Assembly (NCBI GenBank): GCA_965220745.1
Contig: CBDCQT010000012.1
Location: forward strand, 4,661-68,660
From: Alphaproteobacteria bacterium
GTDB lineage: Bacteria > Pseudomonadota > Alphaproteobacteria > UBA828
DNA length: 64,000 nt
Reading direction: 5' to 3'
In this document: positions 44,714 through 47,556 of the stretch, piece after piece
Layout of the letters: every line of letters starts with the position of its first letter
Numbering within the stretch: the first letter of the stretch is position 1
The notes under the pieces: model-generated
The model's database searches: none
Seen by the model: only the letters and a program-made list of their open reading frames with translations
What the model was told of the DNA's origin: nothing
Translations under genes and position numbers: made by a program

Positions 44714-44766
44714 CCCCATCCCGGCTTTTGTCTGCCCAGGGAAACCGAGGGTAAGGGAGGAGCGTG

Positions 44767-45351
44767 ATGGGCACGTTGGCATTCGAGCATCATCTGCTGA
44801 AGGAAGCCGGCACGAGCCCCAACAACGGGGCGCTGCCGCTCATCGTCTATCGGGGCGCCATCGATGTCGGCGGCGCCGAGCCGGAAGCGGCGGTCGAGCG
44901 CCACTTCGACTCCAACGGTTGGGGCGACGGCTTTCGCGGCGATACCTTTCCTTTCCACCACTACCACTCCATCGCCCACGAGGTGGTGGGCTGCGCACGC
45001 GGTGCGGCGCAGCTCCAGTTCGGCGGGCCGGAGGGGCCGGTGGTGGACGTGCAGGCGGGCGATGCCGTGCTGATCCCCGCCGGCGTGGTCCACGCTCGCC
45101 TCGACGACAAGCCGGGTTACGTCAGCGTCGGCGCCTACCCGCCGGGGCAGCAGCCGGACCTCTGCGTGCTGTCGAACCAGGATGCCGAGGTCTCGAACGC
45201 GCGCGAGGATACCGAGGGCCTGGAGCTGAAGGTGATCGGCCAGACGGAGATGCCCGCGATCAGGGCCTCCATCGCCGATGTCCCGCTGCCCGCGACCGAC
45301 CCGCTCGCCGGCGGCAGCGGCCCCGTGGCCGAGCTCTGGCTGGAGCGCTGA
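44767..45351 (+). CDS. YjlB-like cupin domain protein
   Basis: An AAGGGAGGAG RBS. ...FHHYHSIAHEVVGCARGAAQLQFGGPEG...GDAVLIPAGVVH... The last 35 nt are duplicated at 47168-47202. Confidence 0.7.
   Translation: MGTLAFEHHLLKEAGTSPNNGALPLIVYRGAIDVGGAEPEAAVERHFDSNGWGDGFRGDTFPFHHYHSIAHEVVGCARGAAQLQFGGPEGPVVDVQAGDAVLIPAGVVHARLDDKPGYVSVGAYPPGQQPDLCVLSNQDAEVSNAREDTEGLELKVIGQTEMPAIRASIADVPLPATDPLAGGSGPVAELWLER
45317..45351. repeat. 35-bp direct repeat, copy 1 (3' end of cupin gene including stop)
   Basis: GCGGCCCCGTGGCCGAGCTCTGGCTGGAGCGCTGA matches 47168-47202 with one mismatch (G/A). Confidence 0.9.
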
Positions 45352-45715
45352 GCGCCGGCGCCAGCCGTTGGATCCGATAATCTTGTGCGCGTAGTACTAA
45401 CGAGCACACTCTCGCAATCGTACATTTCCTGATGCAGTGTTGATTCTGACGTCTGCCTCAAGTCATGCTGTCTACACCACGTTACCCATTCAAGCTTACC
45501 AGCTCGGTAATGCACATGGTGCCATCTGTCTTGCTGAGCCACCTATTCGGAAAATGTAAGTTTCGCCCAATGGTTCATTCGACGCCGTTTCGCTTTGAGA
45601 ACTGTCAAGGAATTAATTTGACTTGTATGTGTATTTCCCCCAACTACAAATTACCCGTTAATTTTCTCCAAGGACACGCCATGTGCCGGCACCGTATCTA
45701 AAATCCCTGTTATGA

Positions 45716-46540
45716 TTATTTTATAACTGACTCAATAGAATACAAATTGCATTTATCGATAGTAGATCGCATTATAAAGTAGTGATCGCTTGCCTCCTTG
45801 AACTCTCCATTACCTATAGCCATCTGGCGTTCATTTTCTGTTCGGAAAACAACGAAGTCTTCGATTCCACGAGCTGCGAAATCTCTTTCCACGTAAGCCT
45901 TATTTAGGGATTCCCATCTGCCAATCGGGCTATTCTTGTCTGCCGTATAATATCTATCTTGAAAGAATTCGTCACAATACAGGACAGGCCTAAATGTGTA
46001 ATACAGTTCCGAAATCAGGGGTCCAACAAGTATAGAGATGGTTTCTTGATCGCAAACGTATTCACCAGGTTCCTTTTGAGTGCTTCCGGCCTCAAAAACT
46101 TCCATGAAATTGCCGCAATCATACATTAGAGCGATTCTCTGAAGAAGTGCAGTGAGAGACTGTCGTATTTCATCTTGATGGTTGGGTAGCTCCCTGTGGC
46201 CAAATACAAGAAGGGCCGCCTCTTCTTTTTCCCAGCTTTTTTCTTGCCAAATCAAATACTCTATCCTATGACTTAGTACTCTTAGTCGCTTAACTGCATC
46301 AGAATTAACAAAGTCTGTATATAGCGCTACAGCGCGGGAGACTGCAGCGCGTTGGTTCTCCTGGATAGCGGAAACGGCTGCCCGATCATTCTCTTGCTTT
46401 GCTATCTCCCCCTGAATTTGCTGTCCCTGCTCAGCAATATTTTGCTGTATGATGATTGCAAATGCCGCAACAATCACGGTTGCGATTACCGTGGGCTCTA
46501 TCCATTTGCGCACGTAGGATCTAATGTTCAGAAACTGCAT
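45716..46540 (-). CDS. hypothetical membrane-anchored protein in AT-rich insert
   Basis: 274 aa. An N-terminal TM segment (IEPTVIATVIVAAFAIII) is followed by a Gln/Glu-rich helix and a ~200-aa Cys/Tyr/Phe-rich domain. Codon usage and GC content are clearly unlike the flanking genes. No domain recognised. Confidence 0.65.
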   Translation of the reverse strand: MQFLNIRSYVRKWIEPTVIATVIVAAFAIIIQQNIAEQGQQIQGEIAKQENDRAAVSAIQENQRAAVSRAVALYTDFVNSDAVKRLRVLSHRIEYLIWQEKSWEKEEAALLVFGHRELPNHQDEIRQSLTALLQRIALMYDCGNFMEVFEAGSTQKEPGEYVCDQETISILVGPLISELYYTFRPVLYCDEFFQDRYYTADKNSPIGRWESLNKAYVERDFAARGIEDFVVFRTENERQMAIGNGEFKEASDHYFIMRSTIDKCNLYSIESVIK

Positions 46541-46962
46541 CCAGGTCCTCCAAGAGCTAACTGGCGCAGATGATTCGTCACGTCGTGTGTCTCATGCACA
46601 TAAACCGTCAGGACAAAAGCTCTCGGCTTTGAAAAATTTGAGATAGAATCGTGCGATCTATTCGTGGCTCCCCCAAGACTTCTCTCGGTGCAGTGCAGGA
46701 GCCGAACACAGTAAGAGAGATGGAGACGTCTGCGGCGCTGGCGACCGAAGCACTTTTGCCAAGCTAAGCGCATTCGAACGCCCGCAGAGCGACTGGTCTC
46801 GACGTATAGCCAATCATGACGATCAAGGTGAGAGTGGGCGCCGGGCACATGCCCTGAAGGCATCGCCTGGCGCCCCGCACCCGTCGGGAGTGCACGCCGT
46901 TCCACGCTTCAACCCGATGTCAGCGCTCGGTCCTACGGACGATTCCTATTCGCTCTCATGCG

Positions 46963-47085
46963 CTATCGGCAGACGGCAGGGTTGCGCGCACACGGATTGG
47001 CGTCCGCATCTGGAATGGCCGAAAGGGCACCTGCGCCTAGACCCAGCACGATCGCCGTCACAAGGGCGAGCATGATCATCTTCAT
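46963..47085 (-). CDS. possible 40-aa secreted peptide
   Basis: A GAGGAG RBS, then MKMIMLALVTAIVLGLGAGALSAIPDADANPCARNPAVCR. Below the track cutoff, with no homology support. Confidence 0.25.
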   Translation of the reverse strand: MKMIMLALVTAIVLGLGAGALSAIPDADANPCARNPAVCR

Positions 47086-47167
47086 GGCGTGCTCCTCAAG
47101 CATCAGCTAAACCCCATAAAGTATATCTTATTCGATATAGCACGAAAGCATAATTTGCCGGTAGACG

Positions 47168-47202
47168 GCGGCCCCATGGCCGAGCTCTGGCTGGAGCGCT
47201 GA
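47168..47202. repeat. 35-bp direct repeat, copy 2
   Basis: GCGGCCCCATGGCCGAGCTCTGGCTGGAGCGCTGA at the distal end of the AT-rich insert. Confidence 0.9.
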
Positions 47203-47211
47203 AGGCCAGCC

Positions 47212-47556
47212 TCAATCGAACACGCTGAAGTCGAGGGAGAGCCGCTCGCCCAGCCAGATTGGGTAGTCGCGGTGATCGGCGAGATCGTCGCCGGTGTTGG
47301 GATGGACCAGCACCGAATGTCCCCGGCGGTTGAGCATGAGCCAGGGCACGAACGCGGCGAACAGCGCCGGCTCGAACGCCACCTGGAACATGTGCATCGG
47401 GTGCGGCCCCACCAGCTTGTCGCGCCAGCGCCCGAGCCGCACGGGGAAGCGCGCGATCAGATCGGTTCTGACCGCCGCCGCGCTCTGCCGCGTCGCAGGC
47501 TCGTAGTAGACGTGGGCGTGGTAGCTGGCGATGGCCGCCGGCGGCAGTGGTGTCAA
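47212..47556 (-). CDS. DOPA 4,5-dioxygenase (DODA) family protein
   Basis: ...[26 protein letters not shown]...[13 protein letters not shown]...[23 protein letters not shown]... The proposed TTG start overlaps the grxD stop (TTGA). The start is uncertain. Confidence 0.6.

Follow-up and report, generated by a model that had tools for sequence, protein, structure and literature searches.

In the window analysed here, a stretch of 64,000 nucleotides of alphaproteobacterial DNA, a foreign AT-rich insert separates the 3' end of a cupin gene from a convergent DODA-family gene and is bracketed by direct repeats of the cupin gene end. We propose, with slightly better than even confidence, that this insert is a non-autonomous mini-island that originated by homology-driven insertion through a single crossover and then spread by homologous recombination of its hosts. 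The cargo of the mini-island is a conserved gene pair, predicted to encode a small secreted peptide and a larger membrane-anchored protein.

Direct repeats of a cupin gene end flank an AT-rich insert

The last 35 nt of the cupin open reading frame (ORF), including the stop codon (GCGGCCCCGTGGCCGAGCTCTGGCTGGAGCGCTGA, 45317-45351), are found again, with a single mismatch, 1,851 bp downstream at 47168-47202. When the window was scanned for this sequence at up to three mismatches, only these two copies were found (with 0 and 1 mismatch, respectively), and none of 100 dinucleotide shuffles of the window had a match. Aligned without gaps, the repeat is 43 nt long at 91% identity. When a 6-nt indel is allowed in the spacer that follows the stop codon, the repeat spans 45317-45366 (copy 1) and 47168-47211 (copy 2), and the duplication thereby reaches exactly the DODA stop. 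Copy 1 (attL-like, plus strand) consists of the 35-nt cupin tail and a 15-nt spacer, GCGCCGGCGCCAGCC. Copy 2 (attR-like, plus strand) is a displaced cupin tail followed by a host-type 9-nt spacer, AGGCCAGCC, and abuts the TCA of the DODA stop at 47212-47214. In the whole 4.8-Mb genome that holds the window (G000; C12, C13 and the like denote its contigs), the 35-nt repeat again has two copies only, and the cupin-tail repeat is therefore not a member of a dispersed family.

The GC content of the insert is 0.37-0.50 over 45400-46700, compared with 0.65-0.75 in the flanks and 0.67 genome-wide. No match to the tyrosine recombinase family PF00589 was found within the insert (C12:49977-51870), its ORFs matched no Pfam, NCBIfam, PHROG or PADLOC family, and no integrase or other pseudogene remnant was detected in it. 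The insert also has no transposase, terminal inverted repeats were absent among the inverted repeats reported, and the duplication measures 44-50 bp, not 2-15 bp. Rfam and tRNA scans of the insert returned nothing above threshold.

Both flanking genes are intact. The cupin gene (44764-45351, plus strand; TGA at 45349-45351) encodes 195 residues, in line with its orthologues of 194-207 residues in congeners, and matches Cupin_2 with an E-value of 1e-5, which is below the Pfam gathering cut-off. The DODA-family gene (47212-47541, minus strand; PF08883, E-value 1.1e-34) is convergent with it.

The cupin-DODA junction is empty in many congeners and is a hotspot in the genus

A 4.1-kb region comprising rpsD, the cupin gene, the insert, the DODA-family gene, grxD and bolA was searched against 40 relatives, 20 of which are congeners, and the cupin-DODA junctions were then extracted; some of the compared genomes are draft or metagenome-assembled genome (MAG) assemblies. 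Nine of the 20 congeners have an empty site with a single copy of the repeat. In six of them (G015, G005, G013, G008, G004 and G001) the cupin TGA is followed by 9 nt and then by the TCA of the DODA-family gene, and in the other three (G002, G016 and G017) about 10-15 nt lie between the two stops. The original prediction, made from the letters of the window, had described a 35-nt repeat with one mismatch around a foreign AT-rich insert that lacks a recombinase and had expected empty-site alleles in related genomes, all of which the data bear out, while membership in a dispersed repeat family, which it had named as a refuting outcome, is not supported by the two genomic copies.

Other cargo was found at the same junction in other congeners. 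A vapBC pair (a MazE-like antitoxin and a PIN gene) occupies the junction in G011, G009 and G019, vapBC remnants are present in G020, G003 and G014, a frameshifted DUF2971 gene is also present in G014, and G007 has a DUF900 hydrolase. In G012 the junction holds about 17 kb, starting with a type I hsdS-hsdM-hsdR set (L022 1691-7329, contig C6 of G012) directly downstream of the cupin gene. Because this block has no cupin-tail repeat and contains the housekeeping gene rpoD, it looks like a rearrangement, and it is probably an insertion combined with one. The vapBC, DUF2971, DUF900 and restriction-modification fillers all lack a flanking duplication. Among the 20 congeners, no element with an integrase turned up at the junction, and the att-like repeat sequence has no match in IMG/VR contigs. 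Since the junction holds such varied small accessory and defence-type fillers, we consider it a genus-wide hotspot.

Two further observations concern this neighbourhood. The hsdS gene of G012 has duplicated target-recognition domains, and between the restriction-modification set and the DODA-family gene lie an HTH gene, amidase genes and rpoD. The rpsD-cupin intergenic region varies as well, with about 3.8 kb inserted in G001 (C343:5685-9493) and about 110 extra nt in G006 (L003).

Other carriers of the insert reveal a mosaic history

The same insert with both copies of the repeat was found in the congener G006, an 'Alphaproteobacteria bacterium' MAG, and in L029, a 1,925-nt Logan metagenome contig that reaches from the cupin tail to the DODA tail and is 78% identical. 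In addition, the ENA contig L054 contains the right half of the insert. The copies in the window, G006 and L029 differ from one another by up to 22% and are equally minimal (1.85 kb), and none of the three contains a recombinase.

The ends of the insert indicate which DNA is foreign and which is host-derived. After copy 1, the window and L029 have in common the 15-nt spacer and then the sequence CCGTT(G/A)G(A/T)TCCGATAATCTTG; in the alignments, L029 retains the left-end motif CCGTTGGATCCGATAATCTTGTGCGCG (45367-45393) and G006 retains part of it (GCGTTGGAGCAGAT). As the spacer and the motif are common to the window and L029, the DNA to the right of copy 1 would have come with the element. In copy 2 of L029, on the other hand, the 9-nt spacer is identical to that of the empty site in G001. 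Copy 2 with its spacer thus appears to be the original host tail, since its 9-nt spacer matches the empty-site type. Within the 35 nt themselves, each host's lineage-specific variants appear in both copies (window, GGCCGAGC; L029, GGC(A/G)ACGC), which fits either crossover or conversion inside the repeat in each host or independent integrations.

Comparison of G000 with G006 showed that sequence identity forms a mosaic along the locus. Between the two genomes, identity is 87-95% in the cupin gene, whereas the leftmost 400 nt or so of the insert are unrelated; it is 83% at the 3' end of the larger cargo gene, 97-100% over 45900-47090, and 92-95% in the right repeat and the DODA-family gene. The repeats do not mark the breakpoints of identity, which fall within the element. 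Particularly informative is the 422-nt spacer (46541-46962) that separates the cargo genes: it is only 53-70% conserved in L029 and is thus unconstrained, yet it is 98-100% identical in G006, which therefore points to recent shared ancestry. In other loci of the cargo family, the length of this spacer ranges from 24 to about 430 nt. These identity profiles show that a patch of the element was exchanged between the G000 and G006 lineages after the flanking core genes had diverged.

Two sister islets carry unrelated target duplications

G000 was scanned for AT-rich stretches bracketed by direct repeats, and two further clean cases were found. Sister islet 1 (C13:1032995-1035128; L037 1496-3629) is 2.0 kb long with a lower GC content, and its 116-nt repeats consist of the 3' end and stop codon of an RDD-like membrane-protein gene. 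It carries a 211-aa orphan ORF and an HTH-Peptidase_M78 (ImmA/IrrE-like) gene. Most congeners are empty at this site with one copy of the repeat, and G019 has an insert that is 80% identical. The distal repeat passes leftwards into a foreign and diverged version of the target gene; the position at which it switches to host-identical sequence, host-specific variants included, differs by at least about 30 nt between G000 and G019. Such a shifting switch point is predicted by homologous crossover, not by one fixed site-specific cut. At the focal insert, the repeat is too short and its copies too alike for the crossover to be placed within it.

Sister islet 2 (C13:583835-585298; L038 1436-2899) is 1.4 kb long with a GC content of 0.41-0.47, and its 74-nt repeats are copies of the region where the downstream gene starts. 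It encodes a single 320-aa orphan protein that belongs to no Pfam family. The site is empty in G011, G006, G001 and G010, and the copy in G008 is about 69% identical.

Three other AT-rich regions with repeats of 43-192 nt (C10:224528-227465, C12:719660-722513 and C13:363791-366494) were not counted as sister islets, as they look composite; their contents are a truncated GST copy, a DUF4065/SocA-like gene with an insertion sequence transposase, and an MT-A70 methyltransferase gene with an internal gene fragment. G000 is also unusually rich in recombinases, with about 60 PF00589 matches, many of them in clusters of two or three adjacent genes and with identical copies on several contigs.

Homology-driven insertion is the favoured explanation for the insert and its spread

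In the proposed mechanism, DNA carrying the cargo and a copy of the cupin tail would have met the chromosomal cupin tail and entered by a single reciprocal Campbell-type crossover. The crossover would leave the cupin ORF intact, with copy 1 followed by the element-type 15-nt spacer, and would push the original tail and its 9-nt spacer next to the DODA stop, where they would form copy 2. Later spread, patch exchange and loss of the element would then proceed by host homologous recombination via the repeat and the conserved flanks, exchange being shown by the mosaic identity profile and loss presumably taking the same route. We favour this reading because three loci in one genome have unrelated repeats (43, 74 and 116 nt), one of which duplicates a gene start; because the crossover point of sister islet 1 varies and the identity profile of the focal insert is mosaic; because minimal copies persist at 69-80% identity; and because the other fillers of the junction are free of repeats and no integrase-bearing element occurs at the site.

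Several points weigh against it. The textbook attL/attR footprint of a tyrosine integrase is likewise a duplicated gene 3' end that includes the stop codon, and the roughly 60 PF00589 matches in G000 could act in trans. The short left-end motif is present in all three copies, although only partially in G006, and is a possible recombinase site. With 44-50 bp, the homology comes close to the shortest length at which RecA crossover is efficient. As for a vehicle, no marker (GTA_TIM) of the Rhodobacter capsulatus-type gene transfer agent was found in G000, which leaves such an agent unsupported, and the cargo was found on no plasmid, phage or IMG/VR record searched. The similarity of the two repeat copies within a genome could also stem from gene conversion. 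Finally, the cargo has no homology to any characterised protein. Capture of the insert by non-homologous end joining was also considered and rejected, as G000 has no Ku.

The alternative that survives best is that the repeats are the true attL and attR of a tyrosine recombinase encoded elsewhere and that the islet was moved in trans, or by accretion with an arriving element whose target is the cupin tail, in the manner of a cis-mobilizable element (CIME). In favour of this reading, the stop codon lies within the repeats and the ORF is restored, the DODA stop exactly marks the right boundary, and an element-type spacer and left-end motif are common to the window and L029; candidates for the enzyme are available among the tyrosine-recombinase matches of G000, some of them in paired-integrase modules that lie in the window at a distance of about 15 kb. 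Nevertheless, neither an integrase-bearing element at the junction among the 20 congeners nor an att-like sequence in IMG/VR was found, there is neither tandem accretion nor a third copy of the repeat, the sister islets have unrelated repeats with a variable crossover in one of them, and the other cargo at the junction lacks repeats. On balance, we regard integration in trans as possible but rather doubtful. Regarding the original prediction, which had taken the repeats as the attL/attR signature of site-specific integration, the duplication of the cupin 3' end and the preservation of the ORF stand, whereas homologous recombination fits the evidence better than an origin from an integrase.

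The original prediction had also named a remnant of a larger island as a candidate. In this reading, an integrative island or prophage that was once larger would have lost its integrase and other genes, so that only the ends and one cargo operon were left. Flanking repeats without a recombinase are indeed the expected outcome of island decay, and the same position holds about 17 kb in G012, including type I restriction-modification genes. Decay is nonetheless improbable, as three copies with up to 22% divergence have the same minimal structure of 1.85 kb, neither an integrase nor a pseudogene remnant was found in the insert, and the G012 block is rearrangement-like, with rpoD and without the cupin-tail repeat.

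It is likewise very improbable that a single ancient insertion in the ancestor of the genus was inherited vertically, with the empty sites produced by repeated precise deletion and with no horizontal movement. Recombination between the repeats would recreate the exact empty site, and the L029 copy is old, as judged from the dS of 0.68 for the larger cargo gene. Against this, the core of the cargo is 97-100% identical between G000 and G006 but the flanking core genes are only 87-95% identical, so that a recent exchange is required; G015, the closest to G000 at the left flank, is empty, and the carriers are not mutual closest relatives at the flanks. Moreover, the non-coding copy 2 should show more decay than 1-3 mismatches unless it has been converted. 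A chance repeat, an assembly artefact or a dispersed repeat family, for which the only argument would be the draft or MAG status of some genomes, can practically be dismissed, given that 0 matches are expected by chance, that the genome has two copies only, and that independent assemblies of G006, L029 and, in part, L054 show the structure.

The cargo includes a predicted membrane-anchored protein of a rare family

The larger cargo gene (45716-46540, minus strand; Shine-Dalgarno sequence GGAGGA at 46546-46551) encodes a protein of 274 residues with one N-terminal transmembrane helix (approximately residues 12-37). Positively charged residues lie on the N-terminal side of this helix, which is followed by a helical ectodomain with four cysteines, C142, C163, C189 and C264. 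In an alignment of 45 family members, these four cysteines are the only invariant columns, and nearly all members have exactly four cysteines. Most members are about 230-320 residues long, and those that seem to be full-length have a single N-terminal hydrophobic helix. Because positive residues precede the helix and the four cysteines are conserved, the protein is predicted to have its N-terminus inside and its ectodomain facing the periplasm, likely with two disulfides. Compared with L029, the gene has a dN/dS of 0.09 at a dS of 0.68, indicating strong purifying selection.

A word-indexed search of 5.8 billion proteins gave only three matches to the 274-aa protein; profile searching with HMMER, run exhaustively over 1.84 billion cluster representatives, gave 65 at E ≤ 1e-3. 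The protein itself had no match in Pfam, NCBIfam, PHROGs, PADLOC or the sequences of the PDB, and none of the 45 family members had a Pfam match. An AlphaFold model built from the 45-sequence alignment is mostly helical with a predicted local distance difference test (pLDDT) score of 87.6; it replaced an earlier, poor model from a 4-sequence alignment (pLDDT 65). Foldseek comparison of the model with the PDB and BFVD gave best E-values of 0.78 and 0.92 with TM-scores below 0.3, which amounts to no match. The original prediction of an N-terminally membrane-anchored protein of unknown function is thus in agreement with the single transmembrane helix and with the outcome of the sequence and fold searches.

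A conserved, predicted secreted peptide is encoded next to the membrane-anchored protein

The smaller cargo gene (46963-47085, minus strand; Shine-Dalgarno sequence GAGGAG at 47091-47096) encodes a 40-aa precursor of a putative small secreted peptide, MKMIMLALVTAIVLGLGAGALSAIPDADANPCARNPAVCR. The precursor is predicted to comprise a Sec-type signal and a C-x6-C peptide of about 17 residues ending in ANPC-x6-C-R, with a putative cleavage site between them. A basic N-terminus and a hydrophobic stretch of 18-20 residues are present in all seven peptide homologues, and the mature part is strongly conserved: the mature peptides are IPDADANPCARNPAVCR in the window, IPVADANPCARNPAVCR in L031, and VGPEVAANPCLRDVTICQ and VGPEVEANPCERDPTICQ in the G003 lineage. 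Across the last 17 peptide codons, the window and L031 differ by 8 synonymous changes and 1 non-synonymous change. An ORF ending in NPC-x6-C-x-stop was found upstream of the larger gene on the same strand in 7 of 7 family loci with readable upstream DNA, and it is kept even where the larger protein is only 21-44% identical. The NPC-x6-C motif itself occurs once in the whole genome when all six frames are considered.

Since the peptide ORF is conserved beside the larger gene, the cargo is a conserved two-gene module, predicted to be extracytoplasmic. The original prediction of a single-gene cargo with a merely possible peptide has therefore to be replaced by a gene pair. The alignments suggest that the pair combines a near-invariant small peptide with a fast-evolving membrane partner, whose identity falls to 21-26%.

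The two genes would probably be read as an operon from the AT-rich right end of the insert, with the peptide gene first and the 274-aa gene second. This right end (47104-47167, minus strand), upstream of the peptide gene, includes an inverted repeat (TATATC-N6-GATATA) and is conserved in G006 and partly in L029. It is likely the promoter/operator region of the cargo operon. A consensus scan gave no sigma-70 match within 47104-47167, and the promoter/terminator scan was uninformative.

At the other end, a non-coding block of about 90 nt (45485-45575, plus strand) is approximately 93% identical between the window and L029 and is not present in G006. This block lies downstream of the 274-aa gene and is more conserved in L029 than the coding gene is, and a six-frame comparison found no ORF kept in frame. 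Its fold on the plus strand compared with shuffles gave z = -2.1, a weak signal. As to base composition, the GC content at third codon positions (GC3) of the larger cargo gene is 0.41 in the window and about 0.40-0.46 in the L029, L031 and L034 lineages, compared with about 0.9 for the flanking host genes in the window. The peptide gene has a GC3 of 0.6-0.7 and is much less AT-rich than the adjacent larger gene.

The module is rare and is also found at a second hotspot

Of the 21 species genomes in the genus, 3 (including G000) have the module family; it was absent from the 28 further genomes of the order and from a class-wide sample of 400 genomes. Among GTDB representatives, the cargo was found in G006 only, and JGI metagenomes contributed one more contig, of the L030/L031 lineage.

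In G003, a paralogous module with 21-26% identity resides in a 1.86-kb insert between DUF2147 and DAO genes on contig C2 (L047 2612-4474, corresponding to L033 3012-5002). This insert has no flanking repeat, G002 is empty at the same position (53 nt between the genes), and other species hold other fillers there. G000 itself has a different filler of 4.4 kb between the DUF2147 and DAO genes (C13:833482-837928). As G003, G002 and G000 differ in what they hold at this position, the DUF2147-DAO interval is a second hotspot, and since the paralogous module sits there without a repeat, the cargo is independent of the cupin repeat.

What the module may do can be suggested only tentatively. Judging from the topology of the two proteins, their pattern of conservation and their neighbourhood, the module might be an envelope-level competition or defence pair, in which the peptide would be the effector or ligand and the membrane protein would be its cognate binder, an immunity protein or a sensor. 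This suggestion is made because both products are predicted to be exported, and because the module is sporadic, AT-rich and located in hotspots that elsewhere hold toxin-antitoxin, restriction-modification and defence-type genes. The sporadic distribution also makes a housekeeping role unlikely. A more far-reaching proposal, that the focal insert and the two sister islets are recombinase-free 'homology-hook' cassettes of one or two genes, each bringing the end of a conserved host gene as a hook with which to integrate, excise and pass between related species by host RecA alone, and that the cargo of the focal insert is a new two-component envelope system for phage exclusion or competition, seems unlikely to us.

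Discussion

The CIMEs of the ICESt1/ICESt3 type, which sit in the 3' end of fda in Streptococcus (PMC5704250), provide the closest structural match to the focal insert under the assumption of integration in trans. Like CIMEs, the insert is short, is flanked by direct repeats of the 3' end of a protein gene, and has cargo without genes for integration or transfer; the match is structural only. Unlike CIMEs, the focal islet has no cognate integrative and conjugative or integrative and mobilizable element in the 20 congeners or in IMG/VR, and no decay remnants or accretion arrays. In addition, the sister islets use unrelated repeats, and the crossover of the islet at C13:1032995-1035128 differs between two hosts.

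Hotspots without mobile elements have been shown to turn over by recombination at the core genes on either side (PMC5635113). The cupin-DODA junction resembles such hotspots in that a single core-gene interval holds varied cargo (toxin-antitoxin, restriction-modification and orphan genes) with no integrase and with a mosaic identity profile. It differs from them in that the focal insert and the two sister islets each carry a target duplication of 43-116 nt. As the hotspot model predicts no flanking duplication, an extra step is needed, either a single crossover or an illegitimate event on one side. In experiments with engineered plasmids in E. coli, a circular molecule that entered by single crossover left a lacZ duplication of 109-950 bp (PMC3240628). 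The islets described here share with such Campbell-type integration an insert flanked by a direct duplication, a variable position of the crossover (in sister islet 1) and no need for a dedicated recombinase. Unlike in the plasmid experiments, the homology here is about 44-50 bp, and the circular intermediate and its route of transfer are hypothetical.

Sister islet 1 calls for a further comparison, since its insertion brings a diverged 3' end of the target gene and its long repeats differ synonymously. In this respect it is similar to phage 21 and e14-type elements, which enter the 3' end of icd and supply an alternative gene end. Those elements have their own integrase and extend over tens of kilobases.

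For the cargo, two precedents can be considered. MgrB is a membrane protein of 47 residues that inhibits the kinase PhoQ (PMC8404706), and the HXS antiphage system has a periplasmic effector (PMC13128918), which is a precedent for a defence effector in the periplasm. In MgrB/HXS a very small exported or membrane protein works jointly with a larger membrane protein, as the two products of the module described here would. Unlike MgrB/HXS, the module shows no sequence or fold similarity to these proteins, the partner has no kinase or other output domain, and there is no radical S-adenosylmethionine maturase.

Taken together, the footprint of the insert is a variant of what is known from islands that duplicate gene ends, from CIMEs and from hotspots free of mobile elements, while the cargo is a rare and undescribed family pair. 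Many hotspots of horizontal transfer lack a recognisable mobile element, and this genus offers three clean footprints (43, 74 and 116 nt), together with empty sites and diverged copies, on which a single crossover can be weighed against an integrase acting in trans. The cargo pair, in which the fold of the membrane partner is predicted with confidence and has no known counterpart, is a tractable candidate for a new envelope-level function in defence or competition.

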